From: Chloroflexota bacterium
GTDB taxonomy: Bacteria > Chloroflexota > Dehalococcoidia > Bin125
Assembly (NCBI GenBank): GCA_026705025.1
Contig: JAPPBN010000030.1
Location: forward strand, 12,822-76,821
DNA: 64,000 nucleotides
Direction: 5' to 3'
Made by a program: the position numbers and the translations under genes. Of this stretch, positions 12,662-59,288 are shown piece after piece; the first letter of the stretch is position 1, and the number at the start of each line of letters is the position of its first letter. A model generated the notes under the pieces. It searched no databases, was not told the DNA's origin, and saw only the letters and a list, made by a program, of their open reading frames with translations.

Positions 12662-12796
12662 AGCGGACAACCTGAAGCCGGGGCACGGCTGTCCGGCCGA
12701 CGTTGCTTGCCTGAGATTCACACTCGGTTAACACTCGGAACCAGGCATTGGCAATTGTCTCCAGGACTGGTTACCCTTGGAGGCACAACAGAATAT

Positions 12797-12948
12797 TCGG
12801 GCCGAATCCCTGTGATGCCCAACAGCGGACCAGGGAGCGGGGGACCCAACACTCTGGGGTGAATGCGAGACTCGTCTTCATTGAAGCGAAATCGCACGGC
12901 GCACTCCTTCGCGCCGAACCCGTCAGCTAACCCCGTAGGCGACCGAGG
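12797..12948 (+). promoter_or_regulatory. c-di-AMP riboswitch (ydaO/kimA class)
   Basis: GAAUCCC...GGAGCGGGGGACCCA...GGGGUGAAU...GCCGAACCCGUCAGCUAACCCCGUAGGCG. Matches the conserved cores I recall from B. subtilis ydaO (GAGCGGGGGACCCA, GGGGUGAAUC, CCCGAACCCGUCAGCUAACCUCGUAAGCG). Confidence 0.8.
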
Positions 12949-13139
12949 GAGATGCGCTGCGGAGCGTTTGCACCGAAGCGCAATTCAAGAACCCGTGTCT
13001 TGAGCACGGCTCCACCGGTTCGCCCAACTGTTGAGAGACAGTGATCGGCCGCGAACGTGAGAGTCACGTCGGGAGCGACCGCCCGGCGCACTCAGGGGCA
13101 CGGGTTTCTCGCTCGCCCGTCCCCGTCCTTCCTGGCCGA

Positions 13140-23799: not shown

Positions 23800-23847
23800 A
23801 GCATGCTCCCTACCAAAGACAGTGGAAGCCTAACGAAACGCCGACCC

Positions 23848-24590
23848 ATGCCCTTTGCTGAGATCAACGGACTACAGCTCTTCTATCACGAACAGGGACC
23901 GGTTGATCCTGATGCGCCGACGATCGTCTTCGTTCATGGCACGCAGGGCAATGCCTCGCTGTACGCGGGTCTGATGGATGCGCTCTCTGACCGATTTCGC
24001 TGTGCGGTACTGAACCATCGCGGGCGTCCGCCGTCGGAATCGCCGGACGATGCATCGATGTACAGCATCGAGCAGTTTGCCGACGACCAGGCGTCGTTCA
24101 TCGAACAACGAGGCTACGAAAACATCACCATGATGGGCTGGTCGCTGGGCGTGCGGACGACGCTGGCTTACCTGCATCGGCACGGATCGGGTCGGGTGGG
24201 TCAGGCGATTCTCGTCGCCGGGCCTCCATCTCCGAACTTCGGCGGGCAAGCGTTGACGCCTCCCGATCAGAGCGCGCCGCCGCGCGAGGTGTGGGGGGAG
24301 CAGTTCAGATCGTCGACCGAGGCGTGCTGGGAGGGGTCGCAGCATTCGAGGGCCACGTGCGACCTGGAAGCATCGCAATCCCGGTCGCAATCTTTCCCGG
24401 CCGACATGATCCGATCTGTCCACATGCGGCGGCTGAGTTCATGGCTCGGGAGATTCCGCACGCGACGCTGAGGACGTTTGAGGAGTCGGGCCACGCGCCG
24501 CTGGTCACTGAGGCTGAACGCTTCGTGGAGGAGACAGCCGCATTCATCAAGCGCTGCGAAGCGGCTCGCTCGGCCATTACTGGGGACTAG
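23848..24590 (+). pseudogene. alpha/beta hydrolase, frameshifted
   Basis: N-terminal part (IVFVHGTQGN, GWSLG nucleophile elbow) is in the frame of ORF 23803-24471. The C-terminal part (IPVAIFPGRHDPICP...ESGHAPLVTEAERF) is in the frame of ORF 24291-24590. The switch coincides with a G6 run at 24293-24298. Confidence 0.65.
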
Positions 24591-24647
24591 TTATCCCCGA
24601 AGCGGACAGCGAAGTGTACAGCCGCTGCCGGTCTCCGGAGAGCGGTG

Positions 24648-25313
24648 CTAGCCCTCGGCCAGTTCCTTGACCAACTCGATGAGGGCGTCGGCCCGGGTCG
24701 GGCCGCGTTCGCCGTTGATCACTACGGTGGGCGTACTGGCTAGGCCCTGCGAGACCGCGTCCGTGTGCTGCTGATAGATCCGGTCGAGGTGCGCGCCGTC
24801 GTCGATGCACTGCGCGAACTCGTCGGTGTCCAGACCGAATTCAGCCGCGACGGCAACTGCACCGTCGCGTGTATAGGCGTCGCGACTCGGACCTTCGAAG
24901 TAGTAGTCGTGGAACTCCCACCAGTGGTCCTGGTCGCCGGCGCATTCGGTCGCCAGCGCGGCCATCTCGGAGGCTGCGCCATGATTGATGATGTGCCGGT
25001 ACTCAAAGCGGGCCAGGCCCGTGGCCACCAATTCTTCTTCGATGCGCGGCCCAACCTGGGTCGCGAAATGACGGCAGCCGCCTCAAAGGAAGTCGGAGTA
25101 CTCCTGGATCACGACCGGCGCGTTGGGATCGCCGAGCGAGGCGCGATCGCGGATGACCTGGACCCGCGCCTGCGCTTCGGCTGACTCCGCCTCCTGCGAC
25201 GCGGTCGACTGGGTCCCGGTCTCCTGCGCGACATCGTCCCCACCCGAGCACGCAGCGAGGAACAACGCACTGAACAGCATGACCAGGACGGTGCTCCGGA
25301 GGCAGTGGTTCAC
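24648..25313 (-). CDS. DsbA-like thioredoxin-fold lipoprotein, predicted selenoprotein (UGGC motif; in-frame TGA at 25083-25085)
   Basis: ORFs 25083-25313 and 24648-25031 are in one frame (offset 435 nt). Reads ...APVVIQEYSDFL-U-GGCRHFATQVGPRIEEELVATGLARFEYRH.... Lipobox LFLAAC. GTG 25313 with GAGGAGG upstream. Confidence 0.8.
25046..25064 (-). promoter_or_regulatory. SECIS-like hairpin (gene 1)
   Basis: GCGACCC-AGGUU-GGGCCGC, starting 21 nt after the U of UGA. Confidence 0.6.
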
Positions 25314-25315
25314 GT

Positions 25316-26251
25316 TCAGCCCTCCTCAGACTCCAACTGTGCTGCGAGCTCTTGCACCTGCTCGATCAGCGCGTCGTTGACTGCCCCGCCCTCGCCGTTG
25401 ATCCGGATCGTCGGCGTCCGGTTGAACCCTGCCTGGGCGGCGGCTCGATGCTGTCCTTCGACCAACTCAAGGTGAACCTCGTTGTCCAGGCACTGAGCAA
25501 ACTGCTCCGTGTCCAGCGAGAGCGAGGCAGCCAGAGCGACGGCTCCGTCGCGGCTGAAGTCCTGCGTGGTCATGTAGTGGTCGTGGAAGTCCCGCCAGCG
25601 GCCCTGATCGCCGCCGCACTCAGTGGCCAATGCCGCGGCGACAGAGGGCGGACCGTGATTGAGAATGTGCCGGTACTCGAATCGCGCCAGGCCGGTGCGC
25701 ACCAGTTCGTCGATCACGCGCGGCTCAACCTGAGCCGCGAACCTGCGGCAGTTTCCTCAAAGGAAGTCCGAGTACTCGGTGATCACGATCGGGGCGTCGG
25801 GATTGCCAACGACGTTGCGATTGGCGAACAGCCCGGCCCGATGTCCGGACTCGATGATCTGGCCGACCATCGCCTCCGGCTCAGCTTCAGTCTCGGCCGA
25901 GGGCTCATCCTCGGTCTCAGCCTCTTCGCTCTGCTCTGACGCCTGCGGCTCGGCCCTCGTTGCCTGTTCTTGCTCGGCCGCGTCGGTCAGGCCGGCTTCG
26001 TCGGCGGACTCACCAGCTTGTTCGGCTTCCACTGGCGACGATTGCTCTGCGGCCTCGTCCTCAGCCGTCTCGCTCTGGCCCGCCCGGTACGAAGTCGCCG
26101 GCTGCTCTTGCTTCGCCTCTGACTGTGCGGCTATAGATGTATCGCTTGTCCGCGATTGTTGCCTTGCATCATCGTCAGTCGAACACGAGAGGAACAGCAC
26201 GGTGATTGCAGTGATGAGGGTTGCGGCACGCCAATATGATGAGTGCTTCAT
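25316..26251 (-). CDS. DsbA-like thioredoxin-fold lipoprotein, predicted selenoprotein (UGNC; TGA at 25757-25759)
   Basis: ORFs 25757-26251 and 25316-25717 are in one frame (offset 441). Reads ...APIVITEYSDFL-U-GNCRRFAAQVEPRVIDELVRTGLARFEYRH.... Lipobox LFLSC plus acidic/Gln-rich linker. Confidence 0.8.
25719..25739 (-). promoter_or_regulatory. SECIS-like hairpin (gene 2)
   Basis: CGCGGCUC-AGGUU-GAGCCGCG, perfect 8-bp stem. Confidence 0.65.
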
Positions 26252-26254
26252 TGG

Positions 26255-27265
26255 TTATCGCTCCGCATCATCCGTCTGCTTCCTTTGCGCTTGCTCTTGT
26301 CCCCGATTTAACAGATCCTCCACCTGTTCGAGCAACGCATCACTGATCACCGAGCCGCCCTCCATACTGATCTCAACATAGAGTGCCGGTGTGGCTCCTC
26401 GTTCCTCGGCCTCGCGATGCTGATCCATCACGTAGTCGAGATATCTCTGACTATCGATGCACTCAGCGAACCGCGCTGTGTCAAGCGAGAACGACTCTGC
26501 CACGGAGATGGCGGCCGCGCGGCTAAAGTCGCTCGTCGCCATGAAATGATCATGGAAATCCCACCAAGCTTCCTGGTCCCCTCCACACTCCGTGGCAATG
26601 GCGGAGAAGACTGAGGGCGAGCCGTGAGTCAGGTAGTGATGGTAAACAAAGCGGATTTGACCGCCGCGGATCAACTCTTGGATCAGTCGCGGTTCAACCT
26701 GAGCCGCGAAGGTGCGGCAGTGAGGTCAAAGGAAGTCTGAAAACACCGTGATTGTGACCGGCGCCAATGGGTTGCCGACGGAGTTCCTATCCGCGAACAA
26801 CCCGGCTCGGTGTCCCGACTTGATTACTTGCCCGCCCATCTCCTCCTGTTCGACGGACGACTGCTGTTCGGCCGGCTCGCCCCTCGGTTCGCCACCGTGT
26901 TCAGCCTCCTCGGTTTGGTTGGACGCTTGCCGCTCGGGCTGAGCCTCGGTGTAGGCCTGTACGGTCTGCGTCGACTGCTCCCGTTCAGCAGTCTCGCTTC
27001 TCTGAGGTTCCTTAGCATGTTCGTCTGCGGCAAACCGGTCCGGCCGCTGTCGCTCCCGGGGGACCTTTTGCTCGGTGAGGTCGTCTTGGCCCGACTGGGC
27101 CTGGCGGCTCTGACGGGAACTCGCTGGTTGTTCTTTTGGCTGCCCGTTTGCTTGTACTGACGCAGCCGAACGCTCATGGCGCGGTGGCACCTCTTCGGAA
27201 CTTCTCGAACACCCGATGAGCAACATCGCAGTTGCTGTCAAGACGATGCCCGATTTGAGCATCAT
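26255..27265 (-). CDS. DsbA-like thioredoxin-fold lipoprotein, predicted selenoprotein (UPHC; TGA at 26726-26728)
   Basis: ORFs 26726-27448 and 26255-26674 are in one frame (offset 471). Reads ...APVTITVFSDFL-U-PHCRTFAAQVEPRLIQELIRGGQIRFVYHH.... Start ATG 27265 (MMLKSGIVLTATAMLLIGC lipobox) overlaps the upstream stop. Confidence 0.8.
26689..26707 (-). promoter_or_regulatory. SECIS-like hairpin (gene 3)
   Basis: GCGGCUC-AGGUU-GAACCGC (one mismatch). Confidence 0.6.
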
Positions 27266-28020
27266 CAGCTGCCCTCCTGGTTCTCTACGGCTTCGGCGGC
27301 GGCGCGCACCTGCTCGATGATTCCGCTCAGTGAACGGGCGGCGGGCTGGCCGTTGATTCTGAACGTGGGCGTTCCGCTGATCCCGACGGAGCGTGCATGC
27401 CGCTGCATCTCGAGGATGCGGCCGCGATGCTCCTCGTTGTCGACACACTGCGTAAACCGAGCAACGTCGAGCCCGTTGTCCCGGGCCAGGTCAATCGCAC
27501 CCGCTCGCGTGAAGCTGCGTGCCTGGGCATCAAGCAGATAGGCGTCGTGAAACTCCCACCACGCGCCCTGATCACCCGCGCATTCGGTCGCCATCGCGGC
27601 AAACTGGGAAGCCGACCCGAAGATGATGAAATGGCGGTATTCATACCGGGCAATTCCGCTGTGAATGAGTTCTTCCATAATCTGCGGCTCAGCCTGAGCC
27701 GCGAATCGGCGGCAACTTGGTCACTGGAAGTCGGAATACTCGACGATCAGCACCGGCGCCTCGGGATCGCCGACCACGTTCCTGGCAAACGGCAGCCCCT
27801 CGCGATGGCCGAACGCAATCACGCCGGAATCTGCGCCCACCTCTGCTGGTTGGTCAGCTCCCTGTTCTTGCTGCATGATCGACGCTTCACGATCGGTGCG
27901 GTCACTGCGCACCGTGCCGGTTGAGACGTCCTCATCGGCGTCTCCGTCACCGGATCCGCAAGCCGATACGAGCAATCCGATTCCTGCGAGCAGGGCTACC
28001 AGAAACAGCGTCAGCTTCAT
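27265..28020 (-). CDS. DsbA-like thioredoxin-fold lipoprotein, predicted selenoprotein (UPSC; TGA at 27721-27723)
   Basis: ORFs 27721-28071 and 27265-27678 are in one frame (offset 456). Reads ...APVLIVEYSDFQ-U-PSCRRFAAQAEPQIMEELIHSGIARYEYRHF.... Start ATG 28020 gives MKLTLFLVALLAGIGLLVSAC. Confidence 0.8.
27684..27702 (-). promoter_or_regulatory. SECIS-like hairpin (gene 4)
   Basis: GCGGCUC-AGGCU-GAGCCGC, perfect 7-bp stem. Confidence 0.65.
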
Positions 28021-28067
28021 GGGTTGACTGTATCTGACACTGGTTTCGCCTGACGCAAACGACCCGA

Positions 28068-28859
28068 TCACTGTGCGGCCTGTCCGGCAGCTTCCCTGAC
28101 TGCCTCGTCGATCGCCTCGAAGGTCGGGTCGACTCTCCTGTCGTTGACGAACACCGACGGTGTTCCCGCTACGCCGCGCGCTTCTCCCTCAGCCTTGGAA
28201 GCGTCGACGAGAGGCGCCATCCGTCGCTCATTCATGCAGGTCACGAACTCTGGGTAGCTCAGACCTTCAAACGTGATCTGCCGCCGCAATCCGGCCTCGG
28301 TGAAGAGTGTCTCGTCGCCGGCCATGAATCTGTCATGCAGCGGCCAGAACCCGCCCTGTTCCGCCGCGCATTCCACCACTTGCGCGGCAAAGTCTGCCGC
28401 CTCGCCGCGAACTGGAAAATGTCGGAAGACGAAGCGGGCGATGCCCGGCTCGACCAGTTGCTCCAGAATCATGGGCTCAACCTGAGCCGCAAACCACTGG
28501 CAGCCGCCTCAAGTGAAGTCGCCGTAGTAGCGAATCTCCACCGGAGCGTCCGGTTCACCCAGAACGTGGCGCTCCGATCGCACCCCTTTGTGCTCACCGA
28601 CAATCTCGGTGGGGAGTTCAACAACCTGCTGTTCCTGAGGCTCCTCCTCCGACGCCGCAGTCTGCTGTTGCGGGTCCGCCTCGTCCACCGGCTGCTCTTC
28701 GACCTCCGCGTCCGGTGCTGCCTGTTGCTGTTGAGCGACGGTCGCCTGTCGCTGCACGCGCTCCGCCGCCGCCGTCCCCGTTGGCTGCCCCTCCCCGCCC
28801 GATCCGCAAGCAACCATCACCAGCCCGACCATCGCCGATGCGATAGAGAACCACCTCAT
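28068..28859 (-). CDS. DsbA-like thioredoxin-fold lipoprotein, predicted selenoprotein (UGGC; TGA at 28509-28511)
   Basis: ORFs 28509-28859 and 28068-28472 are in one frame (offset 441). Reads ...APVEIRYYGDFT-U-GGCQWFAAQVEPMILEQLVEPGIARFVFRHFP.... Lipobox LVMVAC. Confidence 0.8.
28473..28490 (-). promoter_or_regulatory. SECIS-like hairpin (gene 5)
   Basis: GCGGCUC-AGGUU-GAGCCC. Confidence 0.55.
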
Positions 28860-28991
28860 GACGTCAGCCTATCGAGGGACCGGAGTCGTTTGACGAGCGG
28901 ACGCTACGCGACTATCGTTCCCGATACACCCCCTGTGCGCTTCGGCGGCAGGGCGCGAGGCTGCCGGAAGGCAGCCTCAGCCATTTCTTGG

Positions 28992-29624
28992 GTGAGAGTC
29001 ATCCGCGCCAACATCTACGTTGACGGCTTCAACCTCTACTACCGCGCGTTGCGGGACACGCCTGATCGTTGGCTGGACCTTGGCCGACTGGCTCAACTCC
29101 TGCTGCCCGGGCACCAAATCAATCGGATTCGCTACTTCACCGCTCGCGTGAGCAGTCGGCCCGGTGATCCCACCCAGGCGCAGCGCCAACAGGCGTATCT
29201 CCGTGCACTGAAGACCGTTCCCGACCTGACGATCCACTACGGGCATCTGCTCGCCAAGCGCAAGCGCCGCCCACTGGCCACGCCACCGCCAACTGGATCT
29301 GCCATCGTTGAGATACTCGACACCGAGGAAAAAGGATCCGACGTCAATCTCGCCTCATACCTCTTGCTCGACGGATTCGAGCAAGACTACGAACTCGCTG
29401 TTGTCATCTCTAACGACTCCGACCTGCAGCTCCCAATCACGTTCGCGCGTGATCGACTCCTGAGAACCGTCGGCGTCTTCGATCCCAGCCGCCGTCGCAG
29501 CTTTCAGCTGTCTCAAGCCGCGTCCTGGTATCGCCGCTTGAGGCGAGGTCCGCTGAGCGCTAGCCACTTCGCCGACACCCTGTCCGACGAGCAAGGCGTG
29601 ATTGTCAAGCCATCCAGCTGGTGA
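28992..29624 (+). CDS. NYN (LabA/PIN-like) domain protein
   Basis: Only the 3' 210 codons of the 429-aa tracked ORF look coding: VRVIRANIYVDGFNLYY...EEKGSDVNLA...VVISNDSDL. GTG 28992 proposed as start. Confidence 0.65.
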   Translation: MRVIRANIYVDGFNLYYRALRDTPDRWLDLGRLAQLLLPGHQINRIRYFTARVSSRPGDPTQAQRQQAYLRALKTVPDLTIHYGHLLAKRKRRPLATPPPTGSAIVEILDTEEKGSDVNLASYLLLDGFEQDYELAVVISNDSDLQLPITFARDRLLRTVGVFDPSRRRSFQLSQAASWYRRLRRGPLSASHFADTLSDEQGVIVKPSSW

Positions 29625-29635
29625 CGCTCGGAGCC

Positions 29636-31324
29636 TCATTCCCGCAACCGCGACATTTCGTCTCGCAGCTGCTGCAGACCCATTGGGCCCAGATCCAGCG
29701 CGGCCTTGTGGAAACTCTTCAAGTCGAATGCATCGCCCATCGACTCTCGCGCCGCCTCACGTGCGGCCAACCACTCGCGCTCTCCGACCTTGTAGCTGAT
29801 TGCCTGGCCCGGCCAACCCAGATACCGATCGACCTCGCTGGCCAGCATCTTCTCGGGGAAGAACGAGCGCTCGATCAGGAATGGCAGGGCCAGCTCCGGC
29901 GTCCAGGTCTCGCCGCCGTGATACTCCTCCTGCTCGGGGATCGGCAGCTCCAGATGCATCCCGATGTCGATCACCACGCGCACCGCGCGCAGCGCCTGAC
30001 TGCTCAGCAGACCCATGTAGTAGGCCGGATCCTCCAGATAGCCCAGCTCCGCCATCAGACGCTCGGCGTACAGCGCCCAACCTTCGACGTAACCCGACGT
30101 CCCCGCCAACAGCCGCTGATAGCAAGTCAGTTCCTCGCCCAGATACCGCGTCGTACCGATCTGCAGATGATGTCCCGGCACGCCCTCGTGGTAGCAGACC
30201 GACAGCTCACGCCACAGCGGGAATCGAGTCTCCCCGCCCGTCGGATACCAGGTCCGGCCCGGGCGCGAAAAGTCTTCCGATGGTCCCGTGTAGTACATCG
30301 CCAGCGCCCCGCCAGGTGGGGCGATCATTGCCTCGATCCGCTGCACCGGCTCGGCGATATCGAAGTGCGTGCCCAGCAGCGCCTGCATCGTCTCGTCCTG
30401 CGTCTGCTGCATCCATTCGCGGAAGGCGTCCTCCCCGGTAATCGCCCGTGCGTCGTCCGATTCCAGCAACGCGATCGCCTCGGCCGCCGACGCGCCCGGC
30501 GAGATTCGCTCGGCCGTCGCCGCCATCTCCGACTGGATCCGCCAGACTTCTTCCCAACCCCATTGATACGTCTCGTCCAGGTCAAGCTCGATGCCGTTGA
30601 ACCCCCGTGACGCCGCCTGGTAGCGCTCCCAGCCGACCGGATCCCGAGGATTCGCATTCGGCAGGTACTCCCGCTCCAGCCAATCTCCCATTGCCGCATA
30701 GCCCTGTTCCGCCGCCGTCGCATTCGGCCCACCATCGATTCCCAGTTCATCGCACAGCCCCTGGAAGAACCCGGCTCCCGTTTCGCTCGGGCCACCGCTT
30801 GGTCCCGCTCCAGACCACACCCGACACTGCTCGACCGCGCCCCGCACCTGCCGCTGAGCCACCACGATCCCCTGCGCCATTCCCGACGCGAGCGACGCCC
30901 GATAGCGGTCCAACGCCTCCGGCACCGCTCCCATGCGCTCAACGATGATCGCCTGGTCCTCCTCCGTCTCACGGGGCATTAGGTCAAAGATCTGCCGCGT
31001 GTTCTGTAGCGGCGACGCCAGGATGTTCAGCGATCGCAAGTGTTCCTGCTGCGTCTCCAGTTCCGCCTCATAGTCAAAGCGCTCCAGCATCACGTCGCGA
31101 GCCACGCGGTCTCGCTCCGTCTCCACGTTGATCAACCGCAGCGCCGCCTCCGCCTGCCGGCGAATCGCCGACCGTTCCGCATGCCCATCCGGCGAGTAAT
31201 CCGTCAACTCTGTCTCGCGACCCGGAATCCCCAGGGCCGTCGCCATGTTCGGACTCGCCGCCGCGAGGGCGTCGACGTACCAATCCGAGATTGCCGACAC
31301 GGACGAGACATCTGGTGTAGTCAT
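29636..31324 (-). CDS. DUF885-family putative metallopeptidase
   Basis: 562 aa from ATG 31324. YHEGVPGHHLQ motif and overall DUF885 layout. Confidence 0.75.
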   Translation of the reverse strand: MTTPDVSSVSAISDWYVDALAAASPNMATALGIPGRETELTDYSPDGHAERSAIRRQAEAALRLINVETERDRVARDVMLERFDYEAELETQQEHLRSLNILASPLQNTRQIFDLMPRETEEDQAIIVERMGAVPEALDRYRASLASGMAQGIVVAQRQVRGAVEQCRVWSGAGPSGGPSETGAGFFQGLCDELGIDGGPNATAAEQGYAAMGDWLEREYLPNANPRDPVGWERYQAASRGFNGIELDLDETYQWGWEEVWRIQSEMAATAERISPGASAAEAIALLESDDARAITGEDAFREWMQQTQDETMQALLGTHFDIAEPVQRIEAMIAPPGGALAMYYTGPSEDFSRPGRTWYPTGGETRFPLWRELSVCYHEGVPGHHLQIGTTRYLGEELTCYQRLLAGTSGYVEGWALYAERLMAELGYLEDPAYYMGLLSSQALRAVRVVIDIGMHLELPIPEQEEYHGGETWTPELALPFLIERSFFPEKMLASEVDRYLGWPGQAISYKVGEREWLAAREAARESMGDAFDLKSFHKAALDLGPMGLQQLRDEMSRLRE

Positions 31325-56301: not shown

Positions 56302-57540
56302 TCAAGCGGACGAACCGCCCAACCAGGCCGACTCGGCCGTTGAGGCGATCTCTTCGCCGATCAGCAGCGACGCTGTCGCGCCGGGACTTGGCGCGTTCAG
56401 GATGTGAATCAGGCGATCCTGGTGGGCGATTTCGAAGTCGTCGGCGAGGGTTCCGTCTCGGCGGAGGGCCTGGGCTCGGACTCCGGCTCCTCCCCGGACG
56501 AGTTGGTCGGGTTCGAGGTTGGGCATCAGGCGCTGGAGGGCGCTGACGAAGGCGGACTTGTTGGCGCTGCGCCAGACTTCGCCGAGGCCGGTTTGCCAGT
56601 GGTCGCGGGCGAGGCGGAGGAAGCCGGGCCAGGTGAGCGACTCGGCGGCGTCGCGGAGGGCGACGTCGCGCCAGCGGTAGCCCTCGCGCTTGAGGGCGAG
56701 GACGGCGTTGGGTCCGGCCTCGACGCTGCCGTCCAGGCGTCGGGTGAAGTGAACGCCGAGGAAGGGGAAGGCCGGGTCGGGGACGGGATAGATGAGGTTC
56801 TTGAGCATCCCGCGGGCTGCGGGCACGAGGTCGTAGTACTCGCCGCGGAAGGGCACGATGCGCAGGTTCCGAGCCTCGGGCGCGCCGGAGCGTCGGGCGA
56901 TGCGGTCGGCCTGGAGTCCGGCGCAGTTGACGGCGTACCTGGCGCGGACGATACCGGTCGTGGTGGCGAGCTGGACGCCCTCGGCGTCGACTCGGACGCC
57001 CGAGACGCGCGAGCGCAGACGCACCGATCCGCCGGCGGACTCGAGCAGTTCGCGGTACTTCTCGCAGACGCCTCGATAGTCGGCGATGCCGGTTGAGGGG
57101 ATGTGCAGGGCGGCGACGCCGGCGGCGTTGGGCTCGAACTCGGCCAGCTCGTCAGGTCCGAGTTCGCGGATGTCCGGGACGCCGTTGGCGTCGCCGCGGC
57201 GGTGCAGATCGCGCATGCGCTCGAGTTCGGACTCGTGCGTGGCGACGACGACCTTGCCGCAGCGCTCGGCGCCGATCCCGTGCTCGTCGCAGAACGCGTA
57301 CATGCGCTCGGCGCCGGCGACGGCCATGCGCGCCTTGGCCGAGCCGGGACGGTAGTAGAGGCCGGAGTGGATCACGCCCGAGTTGTTGCCACTCTGGTGT
57401 CGCCCAACGCCCGATTCCTGCTCCAGCGAGACGACGCGCAGCCCCTCATGCTTCGTCGCAAGCGCCATGGCGGTCGAGAGTCCAAGGATGCCGGCTCCGA
57501 TGACGGCGACGTCGGCCGTGTCGGAGTTGTGGTCAGACAC
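56302..57540 (-). CDS. lhgO: L-2-hydroxyglutarate oxidase/dehydrogenase-like FAD enzyme
   Basis: DVAVIGAGILGLSTAMAL FAD fold and HQSGNNSGVIHSGLYYRPGS, as in LhgO. GTG 57540 overlaps the selD stop by 8 nt. Confidence 0.75.
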   Translation of the reverse strand: MSDHNSDTADVAVIGAGILGLSTAMALATKHEGLRVVSLEQESGVGRHQSGNNSGVIHSGLYYRPGSAKARMAVAGAERMYAFCDEHGIGAERCGKVVVATHESELERMRDLHRRGDANGVPDIRELGPDELAEFEPNAAGVAALHIPSTGIADYRGVCEKYRELLESAGGSVRLRSRVSGVRVDAEGVQLATTTGIVRARYAVNCAGLQADRIARRSGAPEARNLRIVPFRGEYYDLVPAARGMLKNLIYPVPDPAFPFLGVHFTRRLDGSVEAGPNAVLALKREGYRWRDVALRDAAESLTWPGFLRLARDHWQTGLGEVWRSANKSAFVSALQRLMPNLEPDQLVRGGAGVRAQALRRDGTLADDFEIAHQDRLIHILNAPSPGATASLLIGEEIASTAESAWLGGSSA

Positions 57541-58636
57541 GCGGAGCCTCGGTCGGCACGACGCTGAGGCGGCCGCCGTCGGCGGCTTCTGTGACTCGGG
57601 CGATGGGTGTCGCCGTGACCCCACGCTCTTGCAGCTCGTTGATCAGGTGGGGGGCTTCGACGATTCCGGCGGCGATCAGCAAGCCTCCGGAGGTCTGGGG
57701 GTCGTAGAGGAGGGCTTCCTCGAACGTGGTGAGCTCCCGGCTGCCTTTGACGGTCAGGCGGGCTCCGTAGTAGTCGCGATTGCGGGACTGTCCGCCTGAG
57801 CCGAATCCGGCCGCGACGGCTTCGGAGAGGCCTCCCAGCGCGGGGGGCGCGCCGAGATCGATCTCGATGGCGGCGTCGCTCAGTTCGGCCATCTCGTGCA
57901 GGTGTCCGGCGAGGCCGAAGCCGGTCACGTCGGCGATGGCGTGCACACCGGCGGCGAGGTCGGGTTCGGTCGCGGCCTCGGCGGCGTCGCGGTTGAGGGT
58001 CATCATCTGGGCGATGGCGGCGTCCCAGTGTTGCTCGGAGACTGCGCCCTGTTGGTTCGCGCCGATCAGGACTCCGGTGCCGATCTCCTTGGTCAGGATG
58101 ATCGTGTCGCCTGGCTGCGCGCCGCCGGTCGTGCGGATCAACTCGCGTGCGACTTCGCCGGTGACGGCGAGCCCGTACTTGGGTTCCTCGTCGATGATCG
58201 TGTGTCCTCCGGCGATGACCGCGCCCGCTTCGCGCACCTTGTCGGCGCCGCCGCGCAGGACGTCGGCGATGATGTCGGGCGGAAGATCCTCGGGGAAGGC
58301 GGCGATGTTGAGCGCGAACAGCACGCGTCCACCCATCGCGTAGACGTCGGACATGGCGTTGGCGGCCGCGATCGCGCCGAATTGGTAGGGGTCGTCGACC
58401 AGCGGGGCGAAGAAGTCGAGCGTCTGCACCAGCGCGCGTTCGTCGTCGATGGCGTAGACGGCGGCGTCGTCGGGGCGTGCGAGGCCGACGAGCAACTGGG
58501 GATGCTCGGATGGCGGGAACTGGGGACCGAGATGGCTCAACACGTGAGCCAGGCCTTCAGGGCCGAACTTGGAGCCTCAACCGCCGCAGCGGGCGAGGTC
58601 GGTGAGGCGGATGGCTCGACTGTCGCGATCGGACAT
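57533..58636 (-). CDS. selD: selenide, water dikinase (selenophosphate synthetase), Sec-containing form
   Basis: ATG 58636 with AGGAGGG 10 nt upstream. MSDRDSRAIRLTDLARCGG-U-GSKFGPEGLAHVLSHLGPQF...DDAAVYAI...DFFAPLVDDPYQFGAIAAANAMSDVYAMGG. The in-frame TGA at 58577-58579 aligns with E. coli SelD Cys17 (GCGCK). The tracked ORF starts only after the TGA. Confidence 0.85.
58534..58550 (-). promoter_or_regulatory. SECIS-like hairpin (selD)
   Basis: GGCUC-ACGUGUU-GAGCC starting 29 nt after the U of UGA. Same stem sequence as the DsbA-like genes. Confidence 0.5.
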
Positions 58637-58760
58637 GTGCGGGCACCCTCCTGTCTGAGTCGCAGCCTATCGCGGTGATGTGGAGGATCTTCAATAGTAC
58701 TTGCGTTCTGGTACCGGTGACCGTAGCCTGTCGCAGATGAGCATGATGAGGAACGCCGAT

Positions 58761-59288
58761 ATGGATGAGCACTGTTGGATTGACACGCCACTGGGGACGA
58801 TGTATCTCGCGATTCGTAACGGCGCGCTGCAAGAGGCGGGGTTCGTCGACACCTGGGCGCGCCCGGTGTTGTCGCCGGACGCCGAGGAGGCAAGCGAGGA
58901 CTTGTCGAGCGAGGCGCAGCTCGTGCGGGACGCGGTCGCCGGCTACTTCGAAGGTGACATCGAAGCGATCGAGTCGATCACGATCCAACCCGAAGGCACC
59001 GACTTCCAGCGTGCCGTTTGGCAGGCGATTCGCGAGGTGCCGGCCGGTCAGACGGTGTCGTACCAGGACATCGCCCGAGCGGTTGGTAAACCGTCGGCGT
59101 ATCGGGCGGTGGGAACGGCGACCGGTCGCAATCCAGTCGGGATCGCGGTCCCTTGCCACCGGATTGTGCGTTCGGATGGCGGCCTCGGCGGATACGGCGG
59201 CGGGCTGCATCGCAAGGAGTGGTTCCTCGAACACGAACGCAAGAGTCTGAGAACCAGCAAGCAACCCAGCAAGAACGGACACGACTGA
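58761..59288 (+). CDS. ogt: methylated-DNA--protein-cysteine methyltransferase
   Basis: PCHRIV active site and VSYQDIARAVG..RAVGTATGRNP. ATG 58761 preferred (GAGGA upstream); the tracked ORF starts at 58701. Confidence 0.85.
   Translation: MDEHCWIDTPLGTMYLAIRNGALQEAGFVDTWARPVLSPDAEEASEDLSSEAQLVRDAVAGYFEGDIEAIESITIQPEGTDFQRAVWQAIREVPAGQTVSYQDIARAVGKPSAYRAVGTATGRNPVGIAVPCHRIVRSDGGLGGYGGGLHRKEWFLEHERKSLRTSKQPSKNGHD

Follow-up and report, generated by a model that had tools for sequence, protein, structure and literature searches.

Probable selenoprotein genes of the locus

The window, that is, the whole 64-kb stretch of DNA that was analysed, carries five tandem DsbA-like genes on the minus strand, each with a UxxC active site in which the U corresponds to an in-frame TGA codon. 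These are g1 (24648-25313; TGA at 25085-25083 in U-G-G-C), g2 (25316-26251; TGA at 25759-25757 in U-G-N-C), g3 (26255-27262; TGA at 26728-26726 in U-P-H-C), g4 (27265-28020; TGA at 27723-27721 in U-P-S-C) and g5 (28068-28859; TGA at 28511-28509 in U-G-G-C). Pfam matches to Thioredoxin_4/DSBA were obtained for all of them (Thioredoxin_4 for g1), and no orthologue of g3 was found in the relatives. The N-termini of all five proteins are signal-peptide-like, that of the g1 product being lipoprotein-like, and the oxidoreductases are probably membrane-anchored and exported. The sixth gene, selD (57533-58636, minus strand), encodes a selenophosphate synthetase with AIRS and AIRS_C domains, and its Sec codon UGA lies at 58579-58577 in CGG-U-GSK. 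TGA is also the normal stop codon of g2, g5 and neighbouring genes, and the codon is therefore not reassigned genome-wide.

Hairpins downstream of the UGA codons

A 19-nt hairpin spanning codons +7 to +13 (+21 to +39 relative to the U of UGA) was found in five out of five DsbA-like genes, in agreement with the first-pass annotation, which had placed its start at codon +7, 21 nt after the U. Six to eight pairs form around a 3-nt loop. Since an A-U pair can close the loop, the hairpin is best written as 8 bp with a GGU or GGC triloop. All hairpins lie on the minus strand. The g2 hairpin (GCGGCUCA-GGU-UGAGCCGC, 25720-25738) forms all eight pairs plus one extra C-G pair, with a covariance model score of 34.2 bits and an energy of -13.2 kcal/mol; that of g4 (GCGGCUCA-GGC-UGAGCCGC, 27684-27702) also forms eight of eight (32.9 bits, -13.2 kcal/mol). 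In g1 (GCGACCCA-GGU-UGGGCCGC, 25046-25064) seven of the eight pairs are present, with an A.C mismatch and with C-G at the pair that is U-A in the other genes (29.3 bits; -8.1 kcal/mol, or -11.0 including flanking pairs). The weakest of the six is that of g3 (GCGGCUCA-GGU-UGAACCGC, 26689-26707), with seven of eight pairs and a C.A mismatch (29.8 bits); its minimal form reaches only -6.5 kcal/mol, and -10.8 with two flanking pairs. The g5 hairpin (GGCUCA-GGU-UGAGCC, 28472-28490) consists of 6 bp, a bulge and then two further pairs (25.9 bits, -9.3 kcal/mol). The coordinates and sequences given in the earlier annotation were all located in the window, with minor corrections for the two mismatches and the g5 bulge; the g2 hairpin was present as well, but its stem as first quoted begins one base earlier (+20).

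In selD, the hairpin UGGCUCA-CGUGU-UGAGCCA (58533-58551, minus strand; 7 bp, 5-nt loop, -9.4 kcal/mol) starts 28-29 nt after the UGA, and the GGCUC-ACGUGUU-GAGCC reported previously at 29 nt after the U was recovered at 58550-58534. The exact motif GGCTC-N3-9-GAGCC occurs four times in the 64 kb (1.7 expected by chance), and all four occurrences follow these UGAs.

The folding energy of UGA plus 50 nt was not below that of dinucleotide shuffles in the six genes (z = +0.13, -0.97, -1.63, -1.43, +0.04 and -0.72). The extra stability by which it had been proposed to judge the hairpins was thus formally not seen, in a comparison whose power is low given a hairpin of 19 nt and a G+C content of 64%. 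RNAalifold predicted no consensus structure with default settings and 150 sequences; the hairpin reappeared with 120 sequences or fewer, or with RIBOSUM scoring. Rfam gave no matching family, either at the gathering threshold for the whole window or at E <= 10 for two regions, and the same general function as that of the Rfam SECIS families is proposed without a match to them.

Pair conservation among DsbA-like homologues

A total of 177 DsbA-like homologues from 74 genome loci were classified, with TGA at the Sec codon in 165 and TGY in 12. In a gap-free alignment of 150 distinct UGA+60 sequences from related Dehalococcoidia genomes, 93% of the pair cells of the 8-bp structure were paired, versus 28-38% in registers slid by 1-3 nt. 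Pair cells changed on both sides numbered 36 against 4.5 expected, a value reached in none of 500 shuffles, although such counts overstate the independent evidence because most compensatory cells go back to few ancestral events. The compensatory changes were U-A to C-G or G-C (pair 27-35: UA in 124, CG in 18 and GC in 3 sequences) and A-U to G-C (pair 29-33: AU in 128, GC in 8), the latter with at least two paralogue groups of origin. At the fourth pair, about 22% of the sequences in the family tolerate a 1x1 mismatch. The loop is G-[G/U]-N throughout, with A-U or G-C as the closing pair. Divergent Sec-type members carry hairpins of unrelated sequence at the same place (CGCCC-GUG-GGGCG, CGCCCUU-GGUC-AAGGGCG and CUGACGU-GGA-ACGUCAG).

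The published bacterial consensus (bSECISearch) comprises an apical loop of 3-9 nt, an upper stem of 4-16 bp, the loop pattern N1-G-[G|U]-N-N2 with N1-N2 paired and a G in the first two loop positions, a UGA-to-loop distance of 16-37 nt and an energy of -7.5 kcal/mol or lower (PMC13188914, PMC10778597). Under the strict form of this descriptor, 119 of 165 Sec-type homologues passed, compared with 1 of 11 Cys-type homologues and 10.8% of background positions. In the relaxed form, the loop was found at +28/+29 in 150 of the 165 Sec-type genes; three of the 12 Cys-type genes passed, all of them elsewhere, and none had a loop at the Sec-type position. Two Cys-type genes (P0051 and P0052) form two of eight pairs each. 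The generic descriptor is unspecific in this G+C-rich genome, since it accepts 11% of random in-frame positions in its strict form and 44% in its relaxed form. The first-pass annotation had named the same nucleotide conservation in Cys-containing homologues from organisms without the Sec machinery as evidence against its proposal; the hairpin proved to be tied to UGA and missing from Cys-type homologues.

The likeness to SECIS elements that had been suggested was borne out by the fit to the published descriptor (PMC13188914). As in the bSECIS model, the stem-loop is part of the coding sequence and follows the Sec-UGA immediately, with the loop A-G-G-U-U in the DsbA-like genes and a UGA-to-loop distance of 26 nt in these and 32 nt in selD. 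Unlike the model, the DsbA element is a minimal 8-bp/triloop hairpin that is not extended towards the UGA by a conserved lower helix.

Constraint at synonymous sites

The mean third-position entropy was 0.36 bits in codons +7 to +12 versus 1.43 bits in the flanks (Mann-Whitney P = 1.5e-4). Ala codon +8 is GCU in 110 of 116 cases (95%) and Val codon +10 is GUU in 92 of 94 (98%), whereas each of these codons has a genome usage of 8%; GAG (125/127) and CCG (145/148) are similarly fixed at their stem positions. In paralogue pairs with the same amino acid, the codons were identical in 41 of 48 cases within the stem and in 317 of 665 elsewhere (Fisher P = 1.6e-7; the pairs are not independent). When the peptide was kept fixed and codons were resampled according to genome usage, the observed number of pairs was reached with P = 0.0005-0.016 per DsbA gene and 0.004 for selD. 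The comparison of synonymous sites inside and outside the stem thus came out as anticipated, and a constraint at the RNA level on top of the peptide is substantiated by the freezing of synonymous sites, the fixation of rare codons and the compensatory changes in the pairs.

Interpretation of the hairpins

Because the published bacterial descriptor fits, a SelB-binding SECIS is the best explanation, and the six hairpins are very probably bacterial SECIS elements, the UGA being read as selenocysteine via SelB. Genes for selA, selB and tRNA-Sec do not lie in the window. The short coding-sequence stem-loops would recruit SelB.GTP.Sec-tRNA(Sec) once the upstream UGA enters the ribosomal A site. Decoding of this codon would then place selenocysteine at the UxxC active site in each of the five DsbA-like enzymes and within the Gly-rich loop in SelD, and the position of the SECIS within the coding region would force the peptide A-[A/T]-Q-x-[E/G]-P. 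SelB binding, the actual insertion of Sec and the cellular role of the proteins are what we infer from sequence.

The nucleotides could instead be conserved only through a required peptide, FAAQVEP, with which the helix following the active site begins, the hairpin being incidental. The peptide is indeed highly conserved in the family, one Cys-type gene (L072) encodes FATQVEP, and the folding energies are no better than those of shuffles. Nevertheless, this explanation is extremely unlikely and already largely refuted by the resampling and by the rare codons and third positions frozen only in the stem. Moreover, amino acids change within compensating pairs (A..E to T..G; A..E to A..A with U-A to G-C; QV to RF/RS with A-U to G-C), L072 forms only four of eight pairs, and when 185,579 species genomes were searched for the peptide pattern, nearly all the genes retrieved were of the UGA type. 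Coding-region hairpins are able to pause ribosomes, and with signal-peptide-like N-termini in all five DsbA-like proteins a role in pausing for lipoprotein membrane targeting, or in mRNA stability, might be considered; a function of this kind, unrelated to UGA decoding, is very unlikely given the distribution over UGA-type and Cys-type homologues (150/165 versus 0/12 at that position), the equivalent element in the cytoplasmic SelD, and the G-[G/U]-N loop and spacing that fit the SECIS descriptor (PMC13188914). Public annotation implies that the UGAs are true stops in split or decaying genes: database entries for all close homologues are C-terminal fragments (133-aa 'thioredoxin domain-containing protein'), and the 64-kb window is without tRNA-Sec. 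This is next to impossible, as in 165 homologues the TGA coincides precisely with the first active-site Cys, conservation in frame extends to either side with the G+C periodicity of coding sequence, a fragment after the UGA would be devoid of signal peptide and active site, and selD itself is of the Sec type.

The selD hairpin and the scope of the consensus

The first-pass annotation had also proposed a lineage-specific SECIS consensus for finding further selenoproteins. This was not sustained, since the DsbA covariance model failed to retrieve selD: the window selD gave 10.4 bits (E about 4) on the wrong strand, and eight related selD loci yielded no selD hairpin at E <= 1. The similarity of the five DsbA hairpins reflects the paralogy of their genes, as a SECIS within the coding region is copied at each duplication. 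The hairpin of selD is distinct from these and older, being common to the selD genes of many phyla and homologous to their GGCGCA...UGCGCC element. In 42 Sec-type selD homologues from metagenomes, GGCGCA-(GGU/GUN or CGUGY)-UGCGCC is present at +29, the same position and frame (peptide LA[Q/H]VL) as in the window selD, and the stem is the same bar one pair; Cys-type selD homologues have lost it. The loop variant CGUGY of the window selD is common to the LAHVL subgroup. At the differing pair the window has U-A where the others, including relatives 82-88% identical, have G-C (GCU...AGC versus GCG...CGC). The change is compensatory and synonymous on the 5' side, with Ala GCG to GCU and Arg CGC to Ser AGC. 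The selD of the relatives has GGCGCA/UGCGCC while their DsbA-like genes may have GGCUCA/UGAGCC, and therefore the identical stems in the window represent a recent strain-level compensatory variant.

A lineage-wide code, in which the SelB of the clade recognises all selenoprotein mRNAs by a GGC[U/G]CA / UG[A/C]GCC stem and a G-[G/U]-N loop, would allow new selenoproteins to be predicted. In its favour, the unrelated DsbA-like and selD families share a 6-bp stem bar one toggling pair, in the window and in relatives, and published bSECIS elements of different genes usually show little resemblance to one another (PMC13188914). We consider it rather unlikely in view of the covariance model results, the different loops (3-nt GGU versus 5-nt CGUGU) and a spacing 6-8 nt apart (8 at the stem start as first drawn, 6 at the loop). 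In addition, divergent Sec-type DsbA homologues have quite different stems, the toggling pair differs between selD and DsbA stems within single genomes, the GGCGCA-type selD stem occurs far outside the clade, and the evidence base comprises two families.

Comparison with known systems

The SECIS of Escherichia coli fdhF carries ...CA-GGUC-UG... at its apex, where an A-U pair closes the loop and SelB contacts the loop G and U; it also contains a bulged U, and its long lower stem takes in the UGA region. The corresponding sequence is ...CA-GGU-UG... in the DsbA-like element and ...UU-GGUC-AA... in that of one homologue (L069), a likeness that does not imply sequence homology; unlike fdhF, the present elements have neither a bulged U nor a long lower stem.

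The hairpins are very probably an ordinary bacterial selenocysteine-insertion signal. For the DsbA-like genes, selenocysteine use is already established in the family, as DsbA-like selenoproteins, form 1, with UxxC (Sargasso Sea selenoproteome, PMC1088965; PMC1794560; table in PMC13188914). The likeness holds at the family level and includes the DSBA/Thioredoxin_4 fold, Sec in place of the first Cys of CxxC, widespread Cys-type homologues and a predicted bSECIS after the UGA. In contrast to the published family, the Dehalococcoidia genomes carry two to five tandem lipoprotein-like paralogues per locus, and their genes have a strongly conserved SECIS sequence of their own.

Results

The five DsbA-like genes (g1 to g5) form a tandem array on the minus strand (window 24648-28859). 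Each encodes a hydrophobic N-terminal segment ending in cysteine (LAAC, FLSC, LIGC, VSAC, MVAC), then a linker that is acidic or rich in Gln, and short in g1, and finally a domain matching both Thioredoxin_4 (E = 3e-22 to 5e-30) and DSBA (E = 1.6e-6 to 1.7e-11). The active-site motifs of g1 to g5 read UGGC, UGNC, UPHC, UPSC and UGGC, the first residue being the in-frame TGA (25085-83, 25759-57, 26728-26, 27723-21 and 28511-09, minus strand). A DSBA/thioredoxin-like domain with Sec first in the CxxC-type motif is the mark of the DsbA-like selenoprotein form 1 (UxxC). The selenophosphate synthetase gene selD (57533-58636, minus strand) displayed AIRS (E = 5e-27) and AIRS_C (E = 1.9e-15) domains, and its Sec codon TGA (58579-77, minus strand) lies in the N-terminal Gly-rich loop, ARCGG-U-GSK, as in the selenoprotein form of SelD. 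In Cys-type homologues of all six genes the UGA codon is replaced by TGY. Since g2, g5 and neighbouring genes end in TGA, the genetic code is not reassigned. A scan by frame-specific G+C gave no credible candidate for a further in-frame-UGA gene in the window, and no tRNA gene was found within the 64 kb. Among the neighbours checked in the window selA and selB were absent, selD being the only Sec-machinery gene within 64 kb. At the DNA level the window shares ~95% identity with the Chloroflexi MAG contig VXQZ01000033.1, and the relatives are Dehalococcoidia MAGs.

The first-pass annotation had described a SECIS-like hairpin at a fixed distance after each of these UGA codons, and all six were confirmed. 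Counted from the U of UGA, they span +21 to +39 in g1-g5; in selD the hairpin is at 58534-58550, 29 nt after the U. The DsbA hairpins comprise 6-8 pairs and a loop of 3 nt, or 5 nt with the A-U pair open; because A and U flank GGU, they are best described as 8 bp with a triloop. One mismatch each was found in g1 and g3, and in g5 a bulge separates 6 bp from a further 2 bp; selD forms 7 bp with a 5-nt loop. The loop sequence is GGU or GGC in g1-g5 and CGUGU in selD. In all 36 distinct canonical DsbA hairpins the loop begins with G, and the next base is either G or U. UGA and triloop are 26 nt apart in g1-g5, as in the 150 homologues aligned without gaps; in selD the spacing is 32 nt. Exact GGCTC-N3-9-GAGCC sites occur four times in the 64 kb, all downstream of these UGA codons. 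The calculated energies of the minimal 19-mers of g1 to g5 were -8.1, -13.2, -6.5, -13.2 and -8.5 kcal/mol, and that of selD was -9.4 kcal/mol; with two flanking pairs the g3 hairpin reached -10.8 kcal/mol.

The stability relative to shuffled controls that had been proposed as a check was not obtained: the folding energy of UGA+50 nt was not better than that of dinucleotide shuffles (z = +0.13 to -1.63). This test was judged underpowered and not a refutation, because the position-specific and comparative tests were strongly positive. A search for a lower helix that would pair the UGA region revealed no conserved one.

In order to compare the element among homologues, one genome per species (185,579 species genomes) was scanned with a protein pattern, which gave 74 loci, nearly all of them in Dehalococcoidia. 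When the six-frame translations of these loci were searched with a profile, 179 DsbA-like domains were returned, of which 177 were classifiable; the active-site codon was TGA in 165 and TGY in 12. The 150 distinct UGA+60 sequences could be aligned without any gap, and the 8-bp structure had 93% of its cells paired, as against 28-38% when the partners were shifted by 1-3 nt. Changes on both sides were seen in 36 cells, compared with 4.5 expected, and none of 500 shuffles attained this value. Pair 27-35 is U-A in 124 sequences, C-G in 18 and G-C in 3, and pair 29-33 is A-U in 128 and G-C in 8. Two or more paralogue groups show the change from A-U to G-C, and the G.U intermediate is also seen. 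RNAalifold with default settings returned an empty structure for all 150 sequences because of the penalty for the ~22% of sequences mismatched at pair 25-37; with 120 sequences or fewer, or with RIBOSUM scoring (-24.7), the hairpin was recovered. Three divergent Sec-type lineages carry unrelated sequences that form a G-loop hairpin at the equivalent place (CGCCC-GUG-GGGCG, CGCCCUU-GGUC-AAGGGCG and CUGACGU-GGA-ACGUCAG).

The element was specific for Sec-type genes. A strict bSECIS descriptor was passed by 119 of 165 Sec-type genes and 1 of 11 Cys-type genes, the rate at random in-frame positions being 10.8%. With a relaxed descriptor, for which the background is 44%, 159 of 165 Sec-type genes passed (150 with the loop at +28/+29), and the 3 of 12 Cys-type genes that passed did so at other positions. 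The only Cys-type gene with an equal peptide (FATQVEP, locus L072) forms 4 of the 8 pairs, and P0051 and P0052, which are the nearest Cys-type proteins, form 2 of 8. No close Cys-type DsbA homologue above 37% identity was found, so this contrast rests on 12-14 distant Cys-type genes.

The hairpin lies within the coding region, and the question arises whether its conservation reflects the RNA or the encoded peptide. In g1-g5, paralogue pairs with the same residue used identical codons in 41 of 48 cases in the stem codons versus 317 of 665 elsewhere. Across the homologues, the third-position entropies of codons +7 to +12 were 0.34, 0.72, 0.06, 0.72, 0.10 and 0.22 bits, and those of 13 flanking codons ranged from 0.56 to 1.96 bits (means 0.36 versus 1.43, P = 1.5e-4). 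Ala+8 is encoded by GCU in 110 of 116 cases and Val+10 by GUU in 92 of 94, although each represents only 8% of the codons for its amino acid in the genome. Both codons supply U-A pairs to the stem, GCU placing its U opposite the A of GAG and GUU its final U opposite the A of CAG. When synonymous codons were resampled with the peptide fixed and genome usage kept, the observed pairing had P values of 0.0007, 0.0006, 0.015, 0.0005 and 0.016 for g1 to g5 and 0.004 for selD. Amino acids are replaced as compensating pairs (A..E to T..G; A..E to A..A with U-A to G-C; QV to RF or RS). The selection at the RNA level put forward in the first-pass annotation was thus borne out by compensatory changes and by synonymous constraint specific to Sec-type genes. 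Furthermore, the peptide pattern was found across the 185,579 species genomes almost only in UGA genes. It thus appears that the RNA element determines the DsbA-like peptide, and not vice versa.

A metagenome scan for selD yielded relatives of at most 57% identity, which are informative for the general selD SECIS and not for this clade. Sec-type genes made up 42 of the 50 classified, and they carry GGCGCA-(GGU/GUN or CGUGY)-UGCGCC at +29, encoding LA[Q/H]VLRP; Cys-type selD genes keep LAQVL and have lost the stem. The eight relatives that are closer (57-88% identity) all belong to the Sec-type and have GGCGCA...UGCGCC. Compared with the closest of these (82-88% identical), the window selD has GCU in place of GCG, a synonymous change, and AGC (Ser) in place of CGC (Arg); together these constitute a compensatory change of a G-C to a U-A pair. 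Judging from these relatives, the selD hairpin is taken to be a genuine, old selD SECIS, and the identity of its stem with those of the DsbA-like genes in the window to be a recent variant.

Within 56302-59288 of the window, selD is followed by a DAO-family FAD oxidoreductase gene, with an overlap of 8 nt in relatives; the pairing was kept in 5 of 5 relatives checked (L155-L159), an arrangement suggestive of a functional tie to selenium metabolism. An Ogt-like methyltransferase gene lies divergently upstream of selD in the window and in 4 of the 5 relatives.

Discussion

In the bSECIS model a loop of 3-9 nt tops an upper stem of 4-16 bp, 16-37 nt separate UGA from the loop, and the energy is at most -7.5 kcal/mol; the loop has a G as its first or second base, generally with a G or U after it (N1-G-[G|U]-N-N2) (PMC13188914). 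The hairpins agree with this model in loop, stem, early G and spacing, and lie directly downstream of an in-frame UGA aligned with Cys in homologues (PMC13188914). The energy threshold is likewise reached, in the case of g3 (-6.5 kcal/mol for the minimal 19-mer) only with the flanking pairs (-10.8 kcal/mol). The generic descriptor was rejected as stand-alone evidence, as 11-44% of random in-frame positions pass it as a whole. No Rfam SECIS family matched over the window at the gathering threshold, or at E <= 10 over 24500-29000 and 58400-58700; a permissive threshold gave chance matches only. The interpretation as SECIS elements is well supported by the conserved structure, the synonymous constraint, the specificity for Sec-type genes and the fit to the descriptor. 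On this comparative evidence the six hairpins are very probably bacterial SECIS elements, for which SelB binding and Sec insertion are predicted. DsbA-like UxxC selenoproteins with a predicted SECIS have been reported from Sargasso Sea data and are listed in later surveys (PMC1088965, PMC1794560, PMC13188914). Such proteins are thus already known, and nothing changes in the understanding of Sec decoding.

The further proposal of a lineage-specific consensus shared by different families was not supported. A covariance model, R1, was built from the 36 distinct 19-nt DsbA hairpins. In the window its matches were the hairpins of g1-g5 (25.9-34.2 bits) and, on the antisense strand, a G+C palindrome lying within g1; the selD hairpin gave 10.4 bits (E about 4, wrong strand), which is indistinct from noise. 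When 82 loci were scanned, DsbA elements were found and the selD loci of the eight relatives gave no match at E <= 1. The DsbA and selD stems can also differ, inside single genomes, at the pair that is U-A in the window and G-C in the selD of relatives. Since R1 misses selD and the stems can differ within genomes, the consensus is family-specific and inherited through paralogy. A weaker likeness between the two families compared (stem GGC[U/G]CA / UG[A/C]GCC, loop G-[G/U]-N) persists as a lead. The near-identical stems of two unrelated families would be accounted for if the SelB of this Dehalococcoidia clade read the stem sequence as well as the loop. This seems unlikely; if true, there would be a clade-specific SECIS code, usable to find all selenoproteins of the clade. 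Alternatively, the DsbA-like family could have turned into selenoproteins by evolving a copy of a selD-type element.

R1 was therefore rejected as a finder of other selenoproteins, having returned only the five DsbA-like genes and the palindrome in the window. Within its own family it flags selenoprotein genes cleanly in related genomes: in the 74 loci, 160 of 165 UGA-type genes scored at least 24.6 bits on the sense strand, and two off-target sites exceeded 18 bits (25.7 and 18.6). The palindrome (GGCCC-GGGUC-GGGCC, 24688-24706, plus strand, at the 3' end of g1) scored 25.7 bits, with an equal score in L002, a ~95% identical relative. There is no in-frame UGA at a suitable distance, and it is probably a chance match.

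A practical use of these results is the correction of public annotation of the DsbA-like genes and selD. Among the database proteins concerned (P0001-P0050 and P0057-P0078), every close homologue of the DsbA-like genes is a C-terminal fragment of ~133 aa (100-140), those with a name being called 'thioredoxin domain-containing protein', and most selD relatives are N-terminally truncated, beginning at an internal codon (336 aa). This indicates that public gene calls took the Sec UGA as a stop. The case is also a clear example of a coding-region SECIS that dictates codon choice and peptide (A-A-Q-V-E-P), and shows the inheritance of a SECIS via gene duplication. It seems that marine Dehalococcoidia devote resources to multiple Sec-containing disulfide oxidoreductases, predicted to be exported.

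VKOR is the usual substitute for DsbB. At L163 950-1126, the Cys-type homologue most similar to the DsbA-like genes (P0051, 37% identity) is encoded directly upstream of a VKOR-family gene, and this adjacency supports an oxidative-folding role for the DsbA-like family; no VKOR gene was seen adjoining the cluster in the window.

Gene g3 (window 26113-27262) is without orthologue in the 74 related loci, its best match (61% identity) being to g2-type genes, and the stretch 26113-27261 is wholly missing from L001 and L002, both ~95% identical. Its hairpin, with a C.A mismatch, is the weakest of the six, and g3 may be a strain-specific gain or a decaying copy. A second indel adjoins the cluster: the stretch 28815-29640, with an NYN-domain gene (28980-29624, plus strand), is missing from L001. 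An alpha/beta hydrolase (23803-24590, plus strand) appears to be broken up into a pair of overlapping frames (23803-24471 and 24291-24590), which reflects either a frameshift or an assembly error. Elsewhere in the window, a c-di-AMP riboswitch of the ydaO/yuaA type (RF00379) was detected at 12790-12956 on the plus strand (87.7 bits, E = 4e-19).
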